DNA from: a virus
Lineage: Duplodnaviria; Caudoviricetes
Strand: one strand, 5' to 3'
IMG/VR virus record: IMGVR_UViG_3300022413_000011
Coordinates: 1 to 62,777 of that record
DNA: 62,777 nucleotides
Shown: in pieces, positions 1 through 62,777 of the stretch
How the letters are laid out: the number at the start of each line of letters is the position of its first letter
Position numbering within the stretch: the first letter of the stretch is position 1
The notes under the pieces: model-generated
Database searches by the model: none
Seen by the model: the letters and a program-made list of their open reading frames with translations, nothing else
Told to the model about the DNA's origin: nothing
Made by a program: the position numbers and the translations under genes

Positions 1-22
1 CAAGAGTAGCCACTACGCGGAC

Positions 23-763
23 GTGTGTGAGTATCTCACGGGGGTCTCGGGGGCAAGGGTTGCCAAACGGAAAATACCACCTCGTGCCCATATTGAGAAG
101 AAACCCAGAGAATTCCACTACACACTGAGGGACGTAGATGACTGGCACAAACGGATGGACAAAGAACCCAGGGAGTGGTGCCACGATAGGTACGGTCTCA
201 GCAACGAGACGATGGACCAGTTCGACATTGGTTTGGGGACCTTCAAAGTCCCCTGCAAGGGAGGTGTGTATAGAGCAGAGACACGTATAGTCATACCGTG
301 TAAGCACCATGATGAACTGACAGGTATCAAGATACGCTCATTCCCGGGCGACGCGCCTCCCAAGTATCTCTGGAGAGGCAAAGAGGGACAGACGATTTTT
401 AACCTGGACGCCATTACGGAGGACACTGACCAGGTGATTATCACCGAGGGTGAGATTGATGCAATCAGACTGTGCCAGATGGGGATGCCAGCAATCTCGG
501 CCACCTCCGGTAGTGGACTCTGGAAACAGGAATGGAATGAACACATATCACACGTAAGAAACGTGTTTCTGTGCTTCGACAACGACGAAACTGGCAGAAA
601 GTCGGCAGTTAGGTTCAAGAGACATTTCAGGAGAGCCACGATTCTGGACTGGCTACCCCCTGAACTACAGGGGGAGTACAAGGACATCTCCGAGTTTCTC
701 AGGGTGGAAGAATCTCTTGGAGAGAACTACCTGTGGAGGACGATAGCGAACTCCATGAAATGA
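23..763 (+). CDS. DNA primase, Toprim domain (5'-truncated; frame open to the window edge)
   Basis: Toprim motifs ITEGEIDA and CFDNDETG; C-terminal KDISEF. Confidence 0.9.
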   Translation: MCEYLTGVSGARVAKRKIPPRAHIEKKPREFHYTLRDVDDWHKRMDKEPREWCHDRYGLSNETMDQFDIGLGTFKVPCKGGVYRAETRIVIPCKHHDELTGIKIRSFPGDAPPKYLWRGKEGQTIFNLDAITEDTDQVIITEGEIDAIRLCQMGMPAISATSGSGLWKQEWNEHISHVRNVFLCFDNDETGRKSAVRFKRHFRRATILDWLPPELQGEYKDISEFLRVEESLGENYLWRTIANSMK

Positions 764-777
764 AAAGTTTGCCAAGT

Positions 778-806
778 TTGCTATTAGGAAACAAATGTGT
801 TACAAT
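778..806 (+). promoter_or_regulatory. Sigma70-type promoter
   Basis: TTGCTA-17 bp-TACAAT. Confidence 0.7.
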
Positions 807-811
807 AAGAA

Positions 812-978
812 ACATTGCACGCATCATGCTCTGTGGTGGGGCTGAGATGCGTGAGCAACCATGACTCGTGAATTTTCTTACCTGCCTGTGCAACTCATAT
901 ATGGATACGGTTGCAATCCATATATGAGTCACCACCACCACAGGCACAGGCTGGTAAGAAAGCGCACGAGTTTTTTTG
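812..978 (+). ncRNA. Structured leader RNA, C4/CI antisense-RNA-like architecture, ending in a T-run
   Basis: Nested stems 864-870/965-971, 874-882/953-961, 883-890/939-946, 893-906/916-929; loop and bulge complementary to upstream sequences. Confidence 0.65.
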
Positions 979-992
979 TTCCATGAAAGGAC

Positions 993-1259
993 ATGACCAT
1001 GACAGCAGATATAAACGTCACGAAGATACCAACACACAGCAAGGCCAAAAGCTTGCTGGGGGCAACCATACTGAGAATGTATGGCATAAAGCCCGTCTTT
1101 ACCAACACGGGACACCTGACGAAGAAGAGTCGAGATAAAATTACCGAGGTAGGGTACTACTGGTCCCCCTCTTTGGCCACCTGGGTTTTTAGACCAGAGC
1201 TTGGCAATGGGGACAAGTCCAGAGAGAGATTCCGGCCTGGAAGCAGAATGAAAGGATAA
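993..1259 (+). CDS. Hypothetical protein
   Basis: ORF with GAAAGGA RBS. Confidence 0.6.
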   Translation: MTMTADINVTKIPTHSKAKSLLGATILRMYGIKPVFTNTGHLTKKSRDKITEVGYYWSPSLATWVFRPELGNGDKSRERFRPGSRMKG

Positions 1260-1262
1260 ATC

Positions 1263-1445
1263 ATGGCAAGCAGCAATATAAGCGTTATGGGTGAATGGAA
1301 TAAGGACGATCATTGGGACAAGTTGAGTGACGAGGAGAAACTAACCAGACTGTATAACTACATACGAGAGTGTAATCGCAACTTATTCATGGATAAACCA
1401 GGACTCCAAACTTACGGCGATTACGTAGAGAAGATCAGACGTTGA
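1263..1445 (+). CDS. Hypothetical protein
   Basis: ORF with GAAAGGA RBS, follows the upstream ORF by 3 bp. Confidence 0.65.
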   Translation: MASSNISVMGEWNKDDHWDKLSDEEKLTRLYNYIRECNRNLFMDKPGLQTYGDYVEKIRR

Positions 1446-1471
1446 ACGCGTTGAGTTCGAAAGGATAAATC

Positions 1472-1717
1472 ATGAGCGAATTAGACAAAAAAGTCGAGGA
1501 ATTAAAAGTAGCAAGAATTCAAGCCAGAGACCTCTTGGATAGACTTGCTGCCCAAAAGGTGGCGAGTGACGAGAGATTCCAGGAGGAAAACAAGGACCTT
1601 ATCAAGCAGGAGAACGAGGCGAGTGAGCGCGCGGCCCTGTGCTACGAGAAACTGAGAGATGTGGCGATAGAGGCTTACAGGGAAAACCCCTCCACACTCG
1701 AACCAGAAGAGAGATGA
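1472..1717 (+). CDS. Hypothetical coiled-coil protein
   Basis: GAAAGGA RBS; E/K/R-rich heptads. Confidence 0.7.
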   Translation: MSELDKKVEELKVARIQARDLLDRLAAQKVASDERFQEENKDLIKQENEASERAALCYEKLRDVAIEAYRENPSTLEPEER

Positions 1718-1767
1718 GCGACCTGGATTGGGCTGAATGGATAGAGGAGTTTTTCGTGAGGTGATTT

Positions 1768-2976
1768 ATGAGCACATACAGAGTAGTACACAACAAGGAT
1801 AACCCATACTACATAAAGAGCAGGATTGCTCCAAACGACCCACTCCTGTCTTTCAAGGCGAAGGGTATCCATGACTGGCTTATGTCAAAACCTGATGACT
1901 GGTTGGTCATCATGGATGTAATCATAAAAGCATCCTCAGATGGCGAAACGTCTGTTCGGTCTGGCATCAAGGAACTTGAGGCGCACGGCTATGTTCAGCG
2001 CAGACGCGTCACTGACGAAAAAACCGGCAAGGTTCTGAGGTGGGAAACTCATGTATTTGAGTCCCCACAGGAACCAGATCCAAACCTGGCAGAAGACAAT
2101 GAACCAGATGTTGATTATCCAGATGTGGAAAACCCACATGTGGATAACCCAGATGTGGATAATCAAGCCCTACTAAGTAAAGATATACAAAGTAAAGATA
2201 AACTAAGTAAAAAGATTGGCGCTGCTGACGCAGACGCATCTTTGGACCTGGAAAATTTGGAAGATGAAGAAAAGCTAGCAGAGGTATCCCTTTCTTCTGC
2301 TAGTTCTTCTGAAGATGATGACACCGAAGAAACTCCGACTGAAGATGCAGTTGATGAGAACGCGCCCGACCACATCGGACCTACCGGGCTCCCGGAGTCG
2401 GAGAGACCCAACGACAAGAACGGGAAACCTCTAACGGATATCCAGTGGTATCTCAAGGAGTGGGCAGAGGCACAGGGAACTGACCCCACGAAATTGAATG
2501 GACAGGGTCCGCGCCAGTCTGCTGGTGCAAAGAACCTCCTGCAAAACGAGATTTCGATACCAGAGATGGTTCGCGCAATCAACGTTATGAAGCGCGACAA
2601 TTTCAACACTGGTCGCACCATCAGTTTTCAGGAGGTGGTCAAGGATGCCCCGGCCATCCTGCAAATAGACATCCCACTGACAAAGGAGCAGCAGGACATT
2701 GAGGATTTGATGTACAGACTCACCTCCAGAGATAAGGAGACAGCCAGCAAGGATGACTACCTGACAATCAAGAGGGCAGCAGTCATCCTTCAGGGGAAGG
2801 GATGCACATTTGAAACCATGACAGAGTGGTATCAGACATGGGTTAAGGCTTATGGGGTGGTCGTGAGACCAACCCCGTCGAGCGCACAGCAGAAATTGTG
2901 TGCATTCATAGATGATAAGAATGGCAACCCGTTTGACGATGCCCCCAAGAAGGAAACCAAGTGGGGCGAACTGTAA
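1768..2976 (+). CDS. Phage replication initiator (N-terminal HTH, PDVENP-type repeats, acidic linker)
   Basis: LSFKAKGIHDWLMSKPDDW...GIKELEAHGYV winged-helix pattern typical of phage replisome organisers; GAGGTG RBS. Confidence 0.8.
   Translation: MSTYRVVHNKDNPYYIKSRIAPNDPLLSFKAKGIHDWLMSKPDDWLVIMDVIIKASSDGETSVRSGIKELEAHGYVQRRRVTDEKTGKVLRWETHVFESPQEPDPNLAEDNEPDVDYPDVENPHVDNPDVDNQALLSKDIQSKDKLSKKIGAADADASLDLENLEDEEKLAEVSLSSASSSEDDDTEETPTEDAVDENAPDHIGPTGLPESERPNDKNGKPLTDIQWYLKEWAEAQGTDPTKLNGQGPRQSAGAKNLLQNEISIPEMVRAINVMKRDNFNTGRTISFQEVVKDAPAILQIDIPLTKEQQDIEDLMYRLTSRDKETASKDDYLTIKRAAVILQGKGCTFETMTEWYQTWVKAYGVVVRPTPSSAQQKLCAFIDDKNGNPFDDAPKKETKWGEL
2104..2216. repeat. Putative origin: four 15-bp iterons with DnaA boxes, then an AT-rich repeat
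   Basis: CCAGATGTTGATTAT/CCAGATGTGGAAAAC/CCACATGTGGATAAC/CCAGATGTGGATAAT; TGTGGATAA at 2139 and 2154; AAGTAAA x3 downstream. Confidence 0.65.
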
Positions 2977-3004
2977 TTTCCTACATAGGAAGAAAGGACG
3001 AGTC

Positions 3005-3488: not shown

Positions 3489-4592
3489 ATGGACACGAAG
3501 GTGTTAGGAAAAATACTAAAAGCTTGCGCGGCTGTCGCACCAAAGCGCAGCGCAATGGCCACGGGACCGATGGTGCGACTAAGTGTCGAGGACGGAATGT
3601 TGGAAGCGTCGGCAACCGACCTCCAGGTGGGTGTTGTGGTAATTACCGACACCGATTTACCAGACCTTGATGTGTGTGTCAATGCTGAAATGCTGCATAA
3701 GTTCGTAGATAGCATTCAGGGAGAAGAGGTGTCAGCAAAAATCACCCGAGGGAAACTTCTTGTGGAGGGAGGGGGCATTAGAGCAACGTTCCCCACTATG
3801 GACGGTGGGGACTTCCCCAGAATCGGTGGCAACAACGATGGTGAGCTTCTGGAGAATGCCCCTATCGGGCTGATAGACGCGCTCCTGGGGTGCTTCGAGA
3901 CAACAACCAAGAGTGGCGCGCAATCACTCATGGGCGCGTGTATTGAGGCATCCCCCGGGATGATAAGAATCATGAGCAGCGAGTCAGGGGCGATAAACTC
4001 CCTGGCTAGCACAGCGTATGATGGTGAGGCGCGCGGAGAGTTCATCGTGATGCCCACCACGGCCATCAAGACGGCCCTGGCAATGGTGGGAGATGAACCA
4101 GAGGAGAGGATGGTTCTGTCACCCACGACTATCCTGCTTCACTTTACCGGAAATGGATACACGGCGAAGGTGTACTCACAGACTGTTGACGCGCGGTTCC
4201 CATGCAGTACCTTCCACACATTCTTTGAGCTACCAGGTTCTTGGTCGTGTACGGCAGACTTGGGGCATATAAATCACACTCTCAAGTCATCCAAGGCGTT
4301 GGGTGCGGAGAAAGTGGTTCTATCTCTCTCCAAGGATGGGGGAGAAATCGAGTCGGTAGCCAACAACGGCTCCCCATCTTGTAAGGGCAAGTTCGGTGTC
4401 TCCGAGTATCTCGGGGATGACGAGTATATGGCCACGATGTCTTTGCCGTACCTAACCAAGGTTATGATGGATGGTGACGGTGGTGATGAGATAGACATTT
4501 TTGTGGACCCGCGCGGCATCATCAAATCAGTCGTTGATGATGGCCACGTCAACATGCGCAGAATCCTGATGCCAGTGACAGGTGGTGCGTGA
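3489..4592 (+). CDS. dnaN: DNA polymerase III beta sliding clamp-like protein
   Basis: 367 aa; LEASATDLQVGV, FPTMDGGDFP, VDARFP and terminal ILMPV match beta-clamp landmarks. Confidence 0.8.
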   Translation: MDTKVLGKILKACAAVAPKRSAMATGPMVRLSVEDGMLEASATDLQVGVVVITDTDLPDLDVCVNAEMLHKFVDSIQGEEVSAKITRGKLLVEGGGIRATFPTMDGGDFPRIGGNNDGELLENAPIGLIDALLGCFETTTKSGAQSLMGACIEASPGMIRIMSSESGAINSLASTAYDGEARGEFIVMPTTAIKTALAMVGDEPEERMVLSPTTILLHFTGNGYTAKVYSQTVDARFPCSTFHTFFELPGSWSCTADLGHINHTLKSSKALGAEKVVLSLSKDGGEIESVANNGSPSCKGKFGVSEYLGDDEYMATMSLPYLTKVMMDGDGGDEIDIFVDPRGIIKSVVDDGHVNMRRILMPVTGGA

Positions 4593-5281
4593 TGCCAAGA
4601 AATCTTGTTCTTCCCCAGCAGCAGTCTACCGTGTTTGATATGTTCGGGGTCGATGCCCCAGAGGGGTTTGCTCCAAAGGTGGACAAAATGAGTCCGGCCA
4701 TGAGCTTCTCGTTCGACCAGGATGAGATACTCCTGTGGGTTATGGCGCTCTTTAATGATGGCGACAGGTTCGACATAGACGCCACCTACGGGAAAGGAAA
4801 CTTCTACTCTGGCAAGGTGCCGAAACCGGCTAGAATCTTTGATGCCGAGCCACAGCCAGGAACGGGGGCAGAGCAAGGATTCTCATACGCTCTGCCCCTA
4901 GAGGATGCCTCTGTTGGAAGCATCGTATACGACCCCCCGTTCCTCCCTTACACCAGTGAGGGGAGTGTTATCAAGGAGCACTTTCGTCAATACTCGTCGT
5001 ACGGCGCTTTGCGCGAAGACTGGTCAAGGTCGATGGATGAGTTCTGGAGAGTGTTGAGGCCAGGAGGATTCGTTCTGTTCAAATATCAGAACAGCGTCTC
5101 GTCAGGAAGCAACGTGTGGTTGGAAGACTGGCTGCGTCCCTACTGTTACCTGGGGGGATGGAAAAGAAAGGATGCGTTTTTTCTAATGAGCACATCAACA
5201 ATCAATCACTACCCGGGGGGAATGCAGTATCATGCACGAAAAGGCGTCAGCTTTTTTGACGTGTGGGAGAAGCCAAAATAA
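4589..5281 (+). CDS. DNA amino-methyltransferase (N6A/N4C type)
   Basis: IDATYGKG SAM-binding motif, YDPPF catalytic motif, RVLRPGG. Confidence 0.85.
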   Translation: MMPRNLVLPQQQSTVFDMFGVDAPEGFAPKVDKMSPAMSFSFDQDEILLWVMALFNDGDRFDIDATYGKGNFYSGKVPKPARIFDAEPQPGTGAEQGFSYALPLEDASVGSIVYDPPFLPYTSEGSVIKEHFRQYSSYGALREDWSRSMDEFWRVLRPGGFVLFKYQNSVSSGSNVWLEDWLRPYCYLGGWKRKDAFFLMSTSTINHYPGGMQYHARKGVSFFDVWEKPK

Positions 5282-5373
5282 TGGAGAGCAGCATAGGACC
5301 AACACTAGCCAACTTCCTGATGATTCTCGGATTGATTGTATGGATGTTGGTTGAATGGAGTAGCTATGAGTAG
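5281..5373 (+). CDS. Small single-TM peptide (30 aa)
   Basis: TAATG coupling to the methyltransferase; MESSIGPTLANFLMILGLIVWMLVEWSSYE. Confidence 0.45.
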   Translation: MESSIGPTLANFLMILGLIVWMLVEWSSYE

Positions 5374-6832
5374 CACGAGCACAATGCCAAATTTTGTAGT
5401 GGGTGATGAAGCTGATGTCAACCTAGTAAAGGCCACGGAGGAGTGCGCGGAGCATTTGGTGGCTGCTCTGTGGTACGACTTGAAAAGTGTTCCGTGGGTT
5501 ATGGAACACCTTAAGCCAGATGTGTTCCGCGCGGCCCTGCCCGGGCCGTGTGCTATGGTGTACAGCGAGATGGTGCGATTGCAAATCTCTGGTCAGCTAA
5601 ATCCTGGTCAGCTAAAAAACTCCCTGATAAAGCAAGCAGTCGATATGGAATGGCTATCCAGGGTGCAAAATGATGTAGACATTTACACTTCACAGGAGAT
5701 GCACGATTTCTCAATGGAGGTCATCAACCTCCATCAGGTGAACGTGTTGAGGGGGATTCTGTCTGAGGGTTCTAAATCCCTGGCGCAAACCGACGCGGAC
5801 GCACCCGAGGTTGCTGGAGTCGTGGTGTCGGCTATCACGGCACTGGGCTCCGACATAGACGGGGACGTAGAGGACGTAGGGAAAATAACAAGCAGGTTAC
5901 GAGCCCAGCACGGGCAACGAATTCTTGGCAATGACCCCGTGGTGAGAACCGGAATAGCTTCACTGGACTCGAGGCTATCCATGAAGAACGGTGGGCTCTA
6001 CCTGTTTGTAGCAGAACCAAGTATGGGTAAAACGGCTTTTGTTAGACGTATTATATACAACGTGGCAAAGGCAATTGAGTATCCTGAAGAAGAATGCGTG
6101 ATGGTGTTTTCAATGGATGACACTCCAGACGAATTCATACACATGATGGCCTGTTCGGTAGCTAACGTCGATAGCACCAGGCTGGACCAGAATACCCAGG
6201 ACCAGGAGGAGGACGATGCGTACCTCTTGGCCCTGGATGAGATTGAGAGTCTGCCAATCAAGGTCTCTGGGATGCAGACGATGTCTCCAGATGTGGACAC
6301 ATTATTTTATGAGGCGTCGATGGTTAACGCACAGAAGAGTATCAAGCTATGCGTGATTGACTATATGAGTCAGCTATCTGTAAAGACAGAGAGAGGGTCG
6401 AGCGAGACGAGAATATATCAGCGCATTGCCCAGGGGTGTAAGAGCATGGGGAGAATACTCAATTTCCCAACCATTCTTCTTCACCATCTCAATAAATCTG
6501 TGGTATCGAGCGACGACAAGGTGCCAAGGCCAGATGATATTCCCTACAGTGGGTTCAGGGAATCCACTGCTATTCTCGGAATAATGAGACCGGACCAGTA
6601 CAAAAAGAATAGCGAGAGCGTCGAGATAGATGAGCCCTGGGAGAAGGATGTTGTGGTACTCAACCTGATGAAGAACAAGTTTGGGACTCTTCACAAGTTT
6701 GTTATGGGCTGGTATGGCCCGTACACAGGGTTCTACGATTTCGCTGAACCACAAGAACGCGCGGACTATATCCACCTGACGGGCAACAGGCCCGCGGTGA
6801 GTCTGTTTGACATAAGATTTGGGAACAACTAA
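5366..6832 (+). CDS. dnaB: DnaB-like replicative helicase (divergent)
   Basis: TGIASLD, Walker A AEPSMGKT, Walker B CVIDYMSQL, KNKFG; start uncertain (5336/5366/5384). Confidence 0.85.
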   Translation: MSSTSTMPNFVVGDEADVNLVKATEECAEHLVAALWYDLKSVPWVMEHLKPDVFRAALPGPCAMVYSEMVRLQISGQLNPGQLKNSLIKQAVDMEWLSRVQNDVDIYTSQEMHDFSMEVINLHQVNVLRGILSEGSKSLAQTDADAPEVAGVVVSAITALGSDIDGDVEDVGKITSRLRAQHGQRILGNDPVVRTGIASLDSRLSMKNGGLYLFVAEPSMGKTAFVRRIIYNVAKAIEYPEEECVMVFSMDDTPDEFIHMMACSVANVDSTRLDQNTQDQEEDDAYLLALDEIESLPIKVSGMQTMSPDVDTLFYEASMVNAQKSIKLCVIDYMSQLSVKTERGSSETRIYQRIAQGCKSMGRILNFPTILLHHLNKSVVSSDDKVPRPDDIPYSGFRESTAILGIMRPDQYKKNSESVEIDEPWEKDVVVLNLMKNKFGTLHKFVMGWYGPYTGFYDFAEPQERADYIHLTGNRPAVSLFDIRFGNN

Positions 6833-9090: not shown

Positions 9091-9317
9091 ACAATCTTCT
9101 GAATGGACCGTACCGGATTGGTGGACTTGTGGACTATGACGATAGTGACCCGAACAGCAGAGGACCATTTGTAATCATTGTGTCTGACTACGTGGACGGA
9201 AACGTGGCAGACGTGTACGGGGAAACCATCGTGAAAGCCGAGAAAATGGCCAAGAGTATCGTTGGCCTATTGAATACAATAGAGAACGTGAAGCGTGGAG
9301 GAAAATCTAATGTTTAA
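9084..9317 (+). CDS. Hypothetical protein
   Basis: Coupled ORF with GAGGGG RBS. Confidence 0.65.
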   Translation: MVNNLLNGPYRIGGLVDYDDSDPNSRGPFVIIVSDYVDGNVADVYGETIVKAEKMAKSIVGLLNTIENVKRGGKSNV

Positions 9318-9690
9318 CGCAACGATTTCAGGTCGCCTCGGGAATGACCCCGATATGCGATACACCCCAAACGGGGACCCAGTTTGCAGCTTTTCTCTCG
9401 CCACCGACATGGGGTGGGGCGAAAGGAAAGAGACGACATGGTTCAGAGTCACCTTCTGGAGGAAGCAGGCCGAATCCCTGGCCAATCACTTCCACAAGGG
9501 AGATGGGATAATAATATCTGCAAAGGATTTGCGTCTGAATTTGTATGATAAGAACGATGGGGGGCAGGGGGTCAGCCTCAATGTTACAGGTGACTCCTGG
9601 TGGTTCCCGGAAGGTAGCAAGAGCGACGGAGGGTGTAGCAACGGTAGCGCGCCACGGAAGAAGGAGACCAAAAGTGACATACCCTTCTAA
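9310..9690 (+). CDS. ssb: Single-stranded DNA-binding protein
   Basis: GRLGNDPDMRYTPNG...TTWFRVTFW; C-terminal DIPF. Confidence 0.95.
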   Translation: MFNATISGRLGNDPDMRYTPNGDPVCSFSLATDMGWGERKETTWFRVTFWRKQAESLANHFHKGDGIIISAKDLRLNLYDKNDGGQGVSLNVTGDSWWFPEGSKSDGGCSNGSAPRKKETKSDIPF

Positions 9691-9997
9691 CGAAATCAGA
9701 TCGCTATTGAACAAGTTGATGGAGGATTCTCAAACTAACGAAATCAGATCGCTATTGAACAAGTTGATGGAGGATTCTCAAATCTCTCCAGACTTTGCCG
9801 AGGCAACGAGTCACAGGTATGGGTGTCGATGTGACTCGTGCAAGCAGTGGTGGGTCAAAATGGGTCCCACGGAACATGATGTCAGAGATGAATGGTCGTA
9901 TGGCCCATTCAGCGAAGAAGAGTACGTGGCCGCGGGGGGTAAAGTTATCAGTGACCCCCCGTCCGTCTACTTTGCCAAGGAGGTTCTGGATGAGTGA
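9674..9997 (+). CDS. Hypothetical protein with YGCRCDSC motif and a 16-aa duplication
   Basis: GTG 9674 after AAGGAG; frame of ORF 9545..9997. Confidence 0.6.
   Translation: MTYPSNEIRSLLNKLMEDSQTNEIRSLLNKLMEDSQISPDFAEATSHRYGCRCDSCKQWWVKMGPTEHDVRDEWSYGPFSEEEYVAAGGKVISDPPSVYFAKEVLDE
9687..9782. repeat. Perfect 48-bp tandem duplication
   Basis: CTAACGAAATCAGATCGCTATTGAACAAGTTGATGGAGGATTCTCAAA x2. Confidence 0.97.
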
Positions 9998-47910: not shown

Positions 47911-47992
47911 ACATTTTTTCCGGAAAAATCTGGAAAAATCTGGAAAAATGTGGATTTTTCCGGAAAAATCTGGAAAAATCCACATTTTTCCG
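47911..47992. repeat. 10-bp-phased GGAAAAAT array with nested palindromes
   Basis: 20-bp inverted repeat 47942-47961/47972-47991; 18-bp palindrome 47953-47970. Confidence 0.92.
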
Positions 47993-48000
47993 GCGAATCC

Positions 48001-50872: not shown

Positions 50873-51392
50873 GCAGATGCAGTTGTTTAGCAACGTTTCA
50901 ACTGAAACCAGGGAAAAAGCCCTGACAGACTACCCAGAATTGGCTTCTATAATTTTGGCCGCGAAGTCTCCCAATGGGAAACAGAATGGTCCTCACAAGC
51001 ACAATGCTGCCAGGACAGAGGTCGATGGGGTGAAGTATGACTCAACTGGTGAGAAGGACCGTCACTATGTCTTGATGCAGTGGCAGGAGACTGGCATTAT
51101 ATCCGGTCTAAAGCTGAAACCGACCCTGGTCGTTCAGGAGAAGTTCTCCTACAGAGGAAAAAAGTTTCAGCAAATAACGTGGACCCCGGATTTTAGGTAC
51201 TACGATAAAGAGTATGGCGTGTGGGTGTTTGAGGACTGGAAGAGAATGGACAAGAAGACTGGCAAGGCTTACATGACAGAGGATTTCAAGGTGAAAATCA
51301 AGATTGTGTTGTTCCGTTACCCAGACAATCACTTTTTCATTAACTGCCATCCGTACGGGAGGTACTCAGGGTCCCTGTACAGCACTGATTGA
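50853..51392 (+). CDS. DUF1064-family PD-(D/E)xK nuclease-like protein
   Basis: HKHNA...VDGVKYDS.GE, WTPDFRY, EDWK. Confidence 0.75.
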   Translation: MGLNKHEQMQLFSNVSTETREKALTDYPELASIILAAKSPNGKQNGPHKHNAARTEVDGVKYDSTGEKDRHYVLMQWQETGIISGLKLKPTLVVQEKFSYRGKKFQQITWTPDFRYYDKEYGVWVFEDWKRMDKKTGKAYMTEDFKVKIKIVLFRYPDNHFFINCHPYGRYSGSLYSTD

Positions 51393-51417
51393 CAATTTGG
51401 CAAAATCATGCTATGAT
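51389..51417 (+). promoter_or_regulatory. Sigma70-type promoter
   Basis: TTGACA-17 bp-TATGAT with TG. Confidence 0.8.
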
Positions 51418-51422
51418 AATCT

Positions 51423-51509
51423 CACTGTTTGTCATCGCTCATGATTAAACAGTGTCCTTTCATATGGAATAGGTCTCGGGATGGTGAATCTCCCGAGACC
51501 TATTTTTTT
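51423..51509 (+). ncRNA. Candidate ~87-nt small RNA
   Basis: Consensus promoter and terminator with no ORF between; 5' hairpin and anti-SD segment. Confidence 0.6.
51468..51509 (+). terminator. Intrinsic terminator
   Basis: AATAGGTCTCGGGA/TCCCGAGACCTATT followed by a T-run. Confidence 0.85.
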
Positions 51510-57214: not shown

Positions 57215-57302
57215 GAGCTATAGCCCTTCAGGGGTGATTGTAGCACATATTATCTGAAAAATCAATCGGTACGAAACAGGATGAGTCTGCCAGTATCGTA
57301 AT

Positions 57303-57343
57303 TTGTCACTTATTAAATAATATGATATACTATTATTTAATAA
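57303..57343 (+). promoter_or_regulatory. Promoter overlapped by a 13-8-13 inverted repeat
   Basis: TTGTCA-17 bp-TATACT; TTATTAAATAATA-TGATATAC-TATTATTTAATAA. Confidence 0.75.
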
Positions 57344-58123: not shown

Positions 58124-59089
58124 ATGAACAAAATCACACTGACGGACAGCGTGTACCCTGTTGGAGCCGACTTGGGAAACGGTTTTGTTAACCTATACAT
58201 GCAGGACCGACACGCTGGCCTACCGGCTGGATACATGCTCGAGAAACCCACAGGCCCATACGACCCCAAGCGCATGTCATACAAATCCCCAAAGGCGCAA
58301 GAGATTGTCGTCAACGATAAAACCGTATGGGTTGGCCGCGATACTCTCACTGACAAGATGGTGAGATACCTGGACGACACAAAGTACGACAAAGAGCATC
58401 TTCGTATCCTGTTCAGTGCAGGGTTGGCAGAATGGCTTTCCCTGACGAAGGCAAGCACCGAAGAAACGCTACGTCTACGCGTGGCATGTGGGATGCCAGC
58501 CGAAAAGTTCCAGGACCCCAAGAACCGCGCGCTTGCCGAGAAAGCGTACAAGGCTGCTTTTAAGGTGACTAACTCGGACCAGTGGCGCATCACGGTCGGT
58601 GGCAAAAGGATACGTCTGCTGACCGAGTTTGCTGGACTCAGACCCGAGACCGTTGGGTACGCTTGCGTAAGCAAGTTGCACAAAGGGTACACGGTGTTGA
58701 TGGACTGTGGTGCGGGAACCGTCGATGTGTGTGTGTTCCATAGCTCCCAACAGAAAACCCCCATAACTGTAAAATCCTTCAACATAGGGCTCATACACGC
58801 GTTTGACGACATCAACCCCATGCAGATGGACCTACCAGAACTCCTTCTGATTCGTAAGGAGATTGATCCATCGGTACTTAACCCGTACGTGGCGCAAATC
58901 AAGACGCTGACCACAAAGTTCTGTCGCAGGCTCGAAGTGAAGGGGCAGGAAATCAGGGTAAAAATTATTGGGGGCTTGCCTCACCTGATGAGCAAGGAGC
59001 AGCGCGCGTCTCTCTCAATGGGGATACCAGTCGTGTTTGGTGATGCTGGAGAAAACGCGCGGGCGTTTGCTAACTACGCTGGAGAGTAG
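58124..59089 (+). CDS. parM: Actin-like partition ATPase (ParM/StbA family)
   Basis: Phosphate-1 GADLGNGFVN, connect ACGMP and RPET, phosphate-2 MDCGAGTVD, adenosine IIGG. Confidence 0.85.
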   Translation: MNKITLTDSVYPVGADLGNGFVNLYMQDRHAGLPAGYMLEKPTGPYDPKRMSYKSPKAQEIVVNDKTVWVGRDTLTDKMVRYLDDTKYDKEHLRILFSAGLAEWLSLTKASTEETLRLRVACGMPAEKFQDPKNRALAEKAYKAAFKVTNSDQWRITVGGKRIRLLTEFAGLRPETVGYACVSKLHKGYTVLMDCGAGTVDVCVFHSSQQKTPITVKSFNIGLIHAFDDINPMQMDLPELLLIRKEIDPSVLNPYVAQIKTLTTKFCRRLEVKGQEIRVKIIGGLPHLMSKEQRASLSMGIPVVFGDAGENARAFANYAGE

Positions 59090-59886: not shown

Positions 59887-59893
59887 TCGTTCT

Positions 59894-59977
59894 GAGGGCA
59901 TAGCTCAATGGGAGAGCGACACTGAGGTTGGGTCCCTCTGTACTGTGTAGATGTGGGTTCGATTCCTACTGCCCTCG
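59894..59977 (+). tRNA. tRNA-like element with an enlarged anticodon arm (identity undetermined)
   Basis: Acceptor GAGGGCA/TGCCCTC, D-arm TAGCTCAATGGGAGAGC, T-arm GTGGG-TTCGATT-CCTAC; no encoded CCA. Confidence 0.7.
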
Positions 59978-59992
59978 TTTTAAGGAGACATC

Positions 59993-61896: not shown

Positions 61897-61925
61897 TTGA
61901 CTAGCAGGAACATGTGTGATATGAT
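61897..61925 (+). promoter_or_regulatory. Sigma70-type promoter
   Basis: TTGACT-17 bp-TATGAT with TG. Confidence 0.75.
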
Positions 61926-61930
61926 TTGCG

Positions 61931-62086
61931 TGCCAATGTTTGTTCTCCGTAGCCCCACTTTCTCCTGTCGCAATTTAATGGGGTTCCGTGGCATGGCATT
62001 CTGATTTCTCCTTTAGGGTAATGTTGGTAGGATTATAGTTGATAGCAAAAGGGCCAGATCCATATGGATCTGGCCCTTTTGTTTTT
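61931..62086 (+). ncRNA. Candidate ~155-nt small RNA with three UUCUCC motifs
   Basis: Promoter-to-terminator unit with no credible plus-strand ORF. Confidence 0.45.
62046..62086. terminator. Perfect 36-bp palindrome, likely bidirectional terminator
   Basis: CAAAAGGGCCAGATCCAT-ATGGATCTGGCCCTTTTG then a T-run. Confidence 0.8.
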
Positions 62087-62218
62087 CACTAGAACCCATC
62101 ATGCACCCGGATATACTGGTCGCTTATTCCCAGTATTCCAGAAACCCATCATATATCATGACAATGGACCAGTCAACCCCCCTGGCGATTCCCTGCGTAC
62201 CGAAACATGACTTGACCG

Positions 62219-62340
62219 TAAAACACCCCTAAACATCCCACTAAAACATGACTAAAACACCCCTAAACATCCCTAAATAAATCCTAAACCCTAAAACCCC
62301 ATAATCTGCCCCCACTCGACTGAAAAACACCCCCTAAACT
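62219..62340. repeat. CCTAAA-rich repeat cluster
   Basis: TAAAACACCCCTAAACATCCC at 62219 and 62253; further CCTAAA copies up to 62338. Confidence 0.8.
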
Positions 62341-62777
62341 TATTTAGGAGTTCTTAAAATATGCCAATTCCTACGAAAAATCCTGAAATTGGGTCGCGCA
62401 CACCCCCGCGTCACTCACACATACCTACACGTGCTACACACGCACACCTACGCTCCCCACACACATGGGGAGACATGCCCACGTGATACACACGCAGACA
62501 TGGGTAACGCACATACAGGTAACACGTAGGTATACACACCCAAGCACAACCTGCCAACACGAACACATACGGGACACCCCCCTACTGCCCTCGCGTACGC
62601 ACGTAGGGGCACGCGCGCCCGTTGATATGAGGAAGGAATAGGGATGAGAGGGAGAAAGGGGAATGAACGAAGGGAGAAAGGGAGAATGGGGAGTTTGTAA
62701 TTGTGGGGGGATGCCCTCCTCTGCTGGATGGCTCCCCAAATCTCGAGCACCACCCCCCCCCACCCTAGCCCATTCGT

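Follow-up and report, generated by a model that had tools for sequence, protein, structure and literature searches.

A structured RNA leader with the layout of an attenuator ahead of the replication genes of an orphan phage

The locus

We analysed a 62,777-base virus record (IMG/VR IMGVR_UViG_3300022413_000011; this whole stretch is referred to as the window), which is of the linear class and has a CheckV completeness of 81%, and focused on a structured, apparently non-coding leader that lies ahead of its replication genes. PHROG and Pfam scans of the window indicated a siphovirus-like phage, with the small and large terminases (TerS/TerL), the tape measure and tail proteins on the - strand (10.4-47.9 kb) and a replication block on the + strand (1-10 kb; Table 1). 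The leader occupies the 229-nucleotide (nt) gap between the stop codon of the primase gene (763) and the first of three small open reading frames (ORFs). An earlier note, made from the sequence alone, had placed it in front of a replication operon, and the initiator, clamp, methylase and DnaB genes were indeed found downstream. The complete primase, of 332 amino acids, was seen on an 80,458-base contig, and about 18 kb of the source contig lies beyond the window. Relatives of the terminase (at most 29% identity) and of the initiator (at most 40%) were mostly from phages of Gram-positive hosts, which is consistent with the TRTGn-type promoters and AAAGGA ribosome sites.

Table 1. Features of the leader and of the replication block, by position in the window.
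Feature	Position	Strand	Remarks
Primase	2-763	+	cut at the left end of the window
Promoter, sigma-70/sigma-A type, extended -10	778-806	+	TTGCTA-17-TACAAT, TG-n before the -10; start near 813, inferred from spacing
Hairpin H1	818-853	+	8-bp outer stem 818-825/846-853, weak inner stem 828-832/838-842; carries word a1
Word a1 (CTGTGGTGGGGCTGA)	831-845	+	complementary to the rod bulge
Word b1 (GCAACC)	855-860	+	in a 10-nt single-stranded linker; ATG (861) directly after; complementary to apical loop 909-914
41-codon frame through the rod	861-986	+	possible leader peptide; ribosome site weak (GAG only); bulge reads as His codons (CAC x4)
Rod	863-972	+	four helices, 8+10+8+14 bp; predicted intrinsic-terminator stem
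Apical loop ACGGTTGCA	907-915	+	9 nt; b' = GGTTGC 909-914; unpaired probability 0.71-1.00
One-sided bulge CACCACCACCACAG	930-943	+	14 nt; holds a' (CCACCAC 932-938); unpaired probability 0.80-1.00 (930-942), 0.62 (943)
T7 tract	971-977	+	directly at the rod end; predicted terminator tail, termination inferred
First gene past the terminator (first small ORF)	999-1259	+	ATG 999; ribosome site AAAGGA 986-991; 86 amino acids, HA-repeat-related
Second and third small ORFs	1263-1445, 1472-1717	+	
DnaD-like replication initiator	1768-2976	+	
Sliding clamp	3489-4592	+	
Methyltransferase	4589-5281	+	
DnaB helicase	5336-6832	+	
SSB	9295-9690	+	

A promoter followed by a hairpin, a rod and a T-tract

The promoter, hairpin, GCAACC word, rod, bulge, loop and T7 tract that the earlier note had listed were all found where it had placed them. 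The promoter is a 9/12 match plus the TG extension. Its exact TTGCTA-17-TACAAT pattern is unique in the window, where 0.02 occurrences would be expected, and a regular expression for TTG and an extended -10 found 11 sites in the window, six of which, 778-806 included, fall in the few gaps between ORFs. Folding of 808-980 gave -78.5 kcal/mol as compared to -46.2 kcal/mol (standard deviation 3.8) for shuffled sequences (z -8.42), and none of 200 shuffles folded as well. The RNA of the + strand was more stable than that of the - strand (-78.5 vs -72.2 kcal/mol), and a T-run is found 3' of the hairpin on the + strand only. Energies were -18.4 kcal/mol for H1 (813-860), -57.2 kcal/mol for the rod alone (863-977) and -76.0 kcal/mol for the complete transcript, whose terminated form is predicted to be about 165 nt long (813-977). 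The earlier note had also seen GTGGTGG in the loop of H1; the word is present at 833-839, but the minimum free energy (MFE) fold leaves GUGGU (833-837) alone unpaired, because the weak inner stem forms with two G-U pairs.

The promoter and the first ribosome site are therefore separated by the layout of a terminator, that is, a stable hairpin and a U-tract on the transcribed strand. The space between the T7 tract and the gene at 999, whose ribosome site starts 9 nt after the tract, is too short for a further promoter. A promoter followed after about 165 nt by a stable hairpin and a U-tract, with a ribosome site 9 nt on, is what either an attenuating leader or a small-RNA gene with read-through would look like. 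The element is real, non-random and a regulatory element of the RNA type. Three DNA runs from sediment contain this stretch. Two contigs from sediment DNA runs (X1, covering 452-1616, and X2, covering 845-1050) were identical to the element, with no other letters at any position, and there are thus no natural variants of it to compare.

Two unpaired segments of the rod are complementary to two upstream words

The complementarity between the bulge and the upstream hairpin turned out to be longer than the seven letters first noticed, with 9 contiguous pairs between 831-839 and 935-943, within a wider match of 13/15 over 831-845/929-943. The apical loop (909-914) pairs with 855-860 over 6 bp. Two unpaired segments of the rod are thus complementary to two upstream words, as had been proposed by likeness to C4. 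The two word pairs are collinear (a1...b1 / b'...a'), and therefore both pairings could form at once, in antiparallel orientation, with a second molecule.

We compared these matches with those in 5000 dinucleotide shuffles of the leader (813-863). At least 9 contiguous pairs to the bulge were seen in 0.42% of shuffles (p = 0.0042), at least 6 to the loop in 3.9% (p = 0.039), and at least 7 to the bulge together with at least 6 to the loop in 0.22% (p = 0.0022); all three p-values are post hoc. The strict unpaired segments of the bulge and loop were also used to scan the whole window for duplexes, and the leader was the best combined site on the + strand, at -30.6 kcal/mol (mean -13.6, standard deviation 3.8).

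The situation downstream of the rod was different from what the earlier note had suggested. The second copy of GCAACCAT that it had pointed out is present at 1062-1069 on the + strand but is not above chance, since a loop match of at least 6 nt occurs in 18% of shuffles (p 0.18). This copy sits 63 nt into the 86-amino-acid gene, away from its ribosome site, and between 978 and 1100 the match to the bulge is at most 3 contiguous nt. A downstream target is thus at chance level, lies inside an ORF and covers no ribosome site. Elsewhere in the window, GTGGTGG followed by GCAACC within 60 nt occurs solely at 35800-35768 on the - strand. This is the coding strand there, and the start of a 612-amino-acid gene follows 44 nt after the word pair; about 0.6 such pairs would be expected by chance, as estimated from word counts.

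Attenuation as the preferred reading

These observations are most likely explained by a leader that attenuates transcription into the replication genes. The primase operon upstream reads into the rod terminator. Its transcripts, and those from the promoter at 778, would both have to pass this terminator on the way to the replication genes and to the iteron origin (2104-2211). Since the gap is too short for another promoter, the replication genes should depend on read-through for their expression, and on these sequence grounds the leader probably throttles that expression. In its full form, in which the structured, non-coding leader, about 165 nt long and with a strong intrinsic terminator at its end, attenuates transcription close to its promoter and gates the entry of polymerase to the replication genes, we hold this interpretation with a little less than even confidence.

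In order to follow the folding of the nascent chain, MFE structures were computed at increasing lengths. H1 was the structure obtained for chains ending at 860-930. Chains ending at 944-952 folded into an alternative, in which both the bulge (935-943) and part of the 5' arm of the rod (876-886) were paired to 831-847, and from 962 on the structure was H1 plus the rod. At complete length, the fold containing the a1:a' helix was 19 kcal/mol less stable than the terminator fold (-56.8 vs -76.0 kcal/mol), and termination is therefore the expected default.

A possible mechanism runs as follows. By default, transcription would terminate and release a stable RNA of 165 nt, and the fraction of polymerases that read through would be set by the fate of word a1. 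If a1 were held in H1, the rod would zip and termination would follow; if a1 were free as the bulge emerges, it would pair with a' and with part of the 5' arm of the rod, and the terminator would be delayed. Whatever frees or blocks a1 could shift this balance. The terminated RNA would expose a' and b', and could dock on a1 and b1 of nascent leaders, resulting in enforced termination and a dose-dependent negative feedback. Such feedback in trans, proposed by analogy with the logic of P4 CI and pIP501, is possible but seems unlikely to us. We are similarly doubtful of the most elaborate form of the model, an independently evolved same-strand 'self-antisense' attenuator in which a 165-nt RNA, through two collinear kissing contacts at the bulge and the apical loop, would set the dosage of the replication genes.

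Several observations weigh against attenuation by this route. The lower stability of the a1:a' fold at complete length also means that an antiterminator in cis may never form, because H1 forms first and the terminator fold is the more stable, and the a1:a' helix ties up little of the terminator stem. A terminator scan omitted the rod; its criteria allowed loops of 3-8 nt, and the apical loop of the rod has 9 nt. In the duplex scan, the runner-up on the + strand was close to the leader (-28.7 kcal/mol), and two coding sites on the - strand, both rich in glycine codons, outscored it (-34.4 and -32.4 kcal/mol); the post hoc nature of the shuffle statistics belongs here as well. The gaps upstream of rep in two phages with distant Rep homologs, Bacillus B13 and TP901-1, showed neither a promoter-like match nor a T-run, in a comparison that did not specifically seek a long hairpin, and no homologous leader was found in the collections searched. 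Finally, there were no RNA runs among the sequencing runs listed as holding the stretch.

Comparison with known RNA switches

The earlier note had assigned the element to the C4/CI family of antisense RNAs and had proposed Infernal as the check. We ran cmscan on 1-3000 and on 760-1100 (341 bases), and no match to C4 or a related family was obtained at E<=10. A cmscan of the whole window against Rfam 15 at gathering scores returned solely a tRNA, and ARAGORN found no tRNA-like gene at the element. The label C4/CI is an analogy: the leader resembles known phage RNA switches in layout only, and is a member of none of their families. Among other candidates, phi29 pRNA, 6S RNA, a retron non-coding RNA and a plasmid single-strand origin were set aside; there was no Rfam match, no reverse transcriptase was found, and TerS/TerL are present.

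The CI RNA of P4 is processed from an untranslated leader; it pairs with an upstream sequence, seqA, and a downstream one, seqC, and blocks replication-gene expression by termination (PMC4825925). The present leader is like CI in that an RNA would come from the untranslated leader of a replication operon, in having an upstream complementary partner, and in premature termination as the predicted outcome (PMC4825925). It differs in that a downstream partner like seqC is absent or at chance level, in having no Rfam or sequence similarity to CI, in that the terminator here is part of the RNA itself, and in host group, since the protein relatives here point to phages of Gram-positive bacteria.

In c4, the upstream a1/b1 word pair lies in the same transcript as the RNA itself. 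The likeness of our element to the c4 RNA of P1 and P7 (Rfam RF01695) lies in the two separate unpaired segments, collinearly complementary to two upstream words. Unlike c4, it gives no match to the model, has no a2/b2 at a ribosome site and is not followed by icd/ant. The c4 row of a motif table lists Proteobacteria and phages only (PMC2864571). The IsrK RNA of Gifsy-1 is a small RNA with a Rho-independent terminator, the short form of which acts on the read-through form (PMC4825925), and our leader shares with it a promoter, a small RNA with its own terminator, and a layout that would give partial read-through into a small ORF and further genes (PMC4825925). In contrast to the leader, IsrK activates translation of an antirepressor operon; there is no sequence relation between the two, and action in trans is hypothetical here.

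Control of a rep leader by a terminator, two loop pairs and replicons of Gram-positive bacteria are points of likeness to RNAIII of pIP501 and to pT181 (PMC4981023). In those plasmids, however, the antisense RNA comes from the opposite strand, whereas the complementary segments lie on the same strand here. In the PR'-tR' region of lambda, which gives the short 6S transcript, a terminator lies within some 200 nt of a constitutive promoter and must be overcome for the operon to be expressed. A promoter and then a near terminator ahead of an operon are shared with our leader; the difference is that lambda uses the Q protein and controls late genes, whereas no Q-like or N-like protein was detected among the proteins of the window.

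RNA-only control of phage replication or immunity genes has been documented mainly in P1, P7, P4 and their kin, that is, in Proteobacteria. The part available of a 2025 review on phage small RNAs has no mention of 'Gram-positive' or 'Bacillus' (PMC12197685). A same-strand, terminator-ended leader with both antisense segments and their targets would mean that this logic arose more than once, and at about 200 bp it would make a compact and portable attenuator. If the self-antisense form were true, the leader would also set copy number, through transcription across the iteron origin, and would do the work of P4 CI and pIP501 RNAIII with parts unrelated to theirs.

Alternative explanations

The idea closest to the earlier note is a trans-acting antisense immunity RNA of the P1 c4 or P4 CI type, in which the rod or a piece processed from it would silence the downstream genes and keep the prophage state. 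The two unpaired segments with their collinear upstream complements fit such an RNA, as does its encoding in the leader of an operon of replication genes, as in P4 (PMC4825925), and the actin-like partition protein described below hints at plasmid-like maintenance. However, no Rfam C4-type match was found even at E<=10, and no downstream target is evident, since the best matches there reach 3 nt for the bulge and 6 nt for the loop (the latter with p=0.18 and inside an ORF). The c4 RNA acts around the ribosome site of ant (PMC12197685), and there is no such site in this leader. The earlier note had expected a silenced antirepressor or lytic gene downstream. The first gene there encodes a small protein resembling a helicase-associated (HA) domain, and is followed by two small ORFs and the genes for the replication initiator, clamp and DnaB; no antirepressor was found in the window, nor was an integrase, a repressor module or a CI-like repressor (81% of the phage by the completeness estimate). 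The c4 and CI RNAs are short, of about 70-77 nt, and processed by RNase P, as against a rod of 110 nt with a terminator. We consider this explanation unlikely. The proposed RNA-based switch thus survives as a leader with the anatomy and layout of an attenuator, whereas its immunity function is unsupported: it is unproven because the window contains no integrase or repressor module.

Of the rivals other than the c4/CI type, a small RNA acting on other targets ranks highest, followed by a plain terminator, a histidine leader peptide, a DNA element and, last, a - strand countertranscript. The first would be a free-standing small-RNA gene that acts elsewhere, on mRNAs of the host or on further phage mRNAs; its complementarity to its own leader would be incidental and the read-through mere leakage. 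The phage seems to make small RNAs, since the window holds two more promoter-hairpin-T-run units with no gene downstream on the same strand (51389-51509 and 61897-62087), and other sites in the window pair with the bulge and loop about equally well. Against this, no second promoter is available to the gene at 999, whose ribosome site starts 9 nt past the T-tract, and of the three units only that at 778-977 has unpaired segments with internal complementarity. We regard a free-standing small RNA as improbable.

A comparably low probability attaches to the view that the rod is the ordinary terminator of the primase operon, and that the promoter-like site and complementary words are due to chance. 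In its favour, a promoter scan of 6 kb found 5 sites against 5.1 expected, the complementarity p-values were calculated post hoc, and other sites in the window score similarly. However, a terminator with no later promoter would leave the replication genes unexpressed, and the 40-bp, four-helix rod far exceeds what a terminator needs. The promoter also has an extended -10 and a spacer design in common with 61897-61925, an argument that is circular in that the pattern was derived from both sites. Were the element simply a strong terminator with a leaky promoter, it would be an ordinary one.

Attenuation by a leader peptide would require ribosomes on the 861-986 frame to melt the rod, with stalling at the His codons of the bulge setting the read-through. 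A frame is open from the ATG at 861 across the rod, five of seven codons exactly at the bulge are His (CAC x4 plus one), and the stop codon (984-986) abuts the ribosome site of the gene at 999. We nevertheless find this quite improbable: the ribosome site of the frame is GAG only as compared to AAAGGA at the real genes, the start codon lies at the base of the rod, no relatives were found in which the frame could be compared, and there is no evident reason for a phage to link its replication with histidine supply.

Slightly less probable still is a role at the level of DNA, as a cruciform, an inverted repeat bound by a protein, or a site at which the adjacent primase initiates on a single strand. 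The single strand does fold well as DNA (-44.8 kcal/mol, z -8.3), and the element adjoins the primase gene. However, a classical origin, with iterons and AT-rich repeats, lies inside the rep gene (2104-2211), an upstream promoter, G-U pairs and a T7 tract confined to one strand are what an RNA would have, and no similar DNA was found in phages or plasmids by blastn. Least probable of all is a target for a countertranscript encoded in cis on the - strand, in the style of pIP501 and pT181, where RNAIII of pIP501 attenuates the rep leader and requires two loop pairs (according to a title in the reference list of PMC4981023): a weak terminator-like site (829-817) and a single weak promoter-like site (1105-1076, 8/12) are present on the - strand, but the latter is of chance quality and has no extended -10, the promoter scan lists no - strand site there, and no convincing - strand countertranscript promoter was found.

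The downstream gene and the replication origin

When 1.84 billion representatives were searched exhaustively by phmmer with the 86-amino-acid protein, 14 proteins matched at E<=1e-3. Six of the 14 are small (59-81 amino acids), and the best match other than the protein itself was 49% identical (E 1.7e-14); seven are longer, six of them with 5-17 helicase-associated (HA, PF03457) repeats by Pfam. Judged by its sequence, the ORF at 999 is a real gene, and its product belongs to a rare single-domain family that has a GYYW-P----W motif and is related to HA repeats. An AlphaFold model of the protein was confident (pLDDT 78.6) and gave no match in the PDB at E<=0.001.

About 1.1 kb past the gene at 999, the DnaD-like initiator gene contains the 15-nt iteron CCAGATGTGGATAAC in 3.9 copies (2104-2162), and then an AT-rich 15-mer in 2.7 copies (2171-2211). 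When 1-3000 was compared with phage genomes by blastn, the sole similar stretch was this iteron region (75.5%, in rep genes of Bacillus phages). A replication origin is likely at 2104-2211, which argues against the rod as the origin.

A 321-amino-acid protein encoded at 58124-59089 is actin-like in its N-terminal domain (Pfam ALP_N, 3.9e-7) and matches 'partition protein' in PHROG, a hint that the phage may be maintained as a plasmid.

Searches for relatives

By searches with the primase, DnaB, the initiator and the 86-amino-acid protein, the phage is an orphan: nothing closely related was found in IMG/VR, JGI metagenomes, GTDB genomes, GenBank phages or PLSDB plasmids. Neither the primase nor DnaB had a relative in IMG/VR. 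A search of 5.8 billion proteins with the primase returned the query itself and one relative, 35% identical and of different architecture. The replication initiator found 8 proteins, the best of which, other than itself, was 51% identical over 34% of the query.

Relatives of the 86-amino-acid protein were found solely in NCBI, ENA or Logan contigs. Pattern matches to its gene numbered 6 in IMG/VR, 156 in JGI metagenomes and 600 in GTDB genomes, and none of them was confirmed; all 30 stretches from a degenerate motif scan of metagenomes were unrelated, and tblastn against phages and plasmids gave no match. As for the element itself, the exact apical hairpin does not occur in IMG/VR. The loop-plus-bulge pattern was found in seven stretches, three of them of identical sequence; none of the seven had a hairpin around it, and these are chance matches. 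With blastn, the element matched no phage (the 1-3000 query matched at the iteron region only) and no plasmid.

Other elements in the window

The unit at 61897-62087 starts with an extended -10 promoter (TTGACT-17-TATGAT, 61897-61925), whose spacer resembles the one at 778-806. Next comes a folded RNA (z -5.35), about 155 nt long, which closes with a terminator hairpin that has a perfect stem of 18 bp; there is no + strand gene after the unit. The RNA gave a sub-threshold match to Rfam ar35 (33.3 bits vs a gathering score of 45, E 3e-4), and an unpaired UUUCUCCU loop in it could pair with ribosome sites. The unit at 51389-51509 lies between convergent gene blocks and has TTGACA-17-TATGAT with a TG extension and then an RNA about 85 nt long, which forms two hairpins, closes with a T7 tract and had no Rfam match.

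Back-to-back extended -10 promoters on opposite strands, flanking an AT-rich palindrome, are found at 57237-57331 between genes for a 222-amino-acid protein (- strand) and a 158-amino-acid protein (+ strand). Neither protein has a Pfam match, and from its sequence this region is a candidate genetic switch. Dense GGAAAAATCT repeats and palindromes at 47915-47993, in a divergent gap beside the small terminase gene, may be a packaging or regulatory site. The non-coding tail of the window (62100-62777) holds about five repeats of 10-11 nt (TAAAACACCCC type, 62219-62277) and then low-complexity sequence with a strong strand bias to the end of the record. A tRNA-Pro with anticodon AGG (59893-59978) is the sole RNA gene found by Rfam and ARAGORN in the window, and a 48-bp segment is perfectly duplicated in tandem at 9687-9782 (2.0 copies, 100% match).

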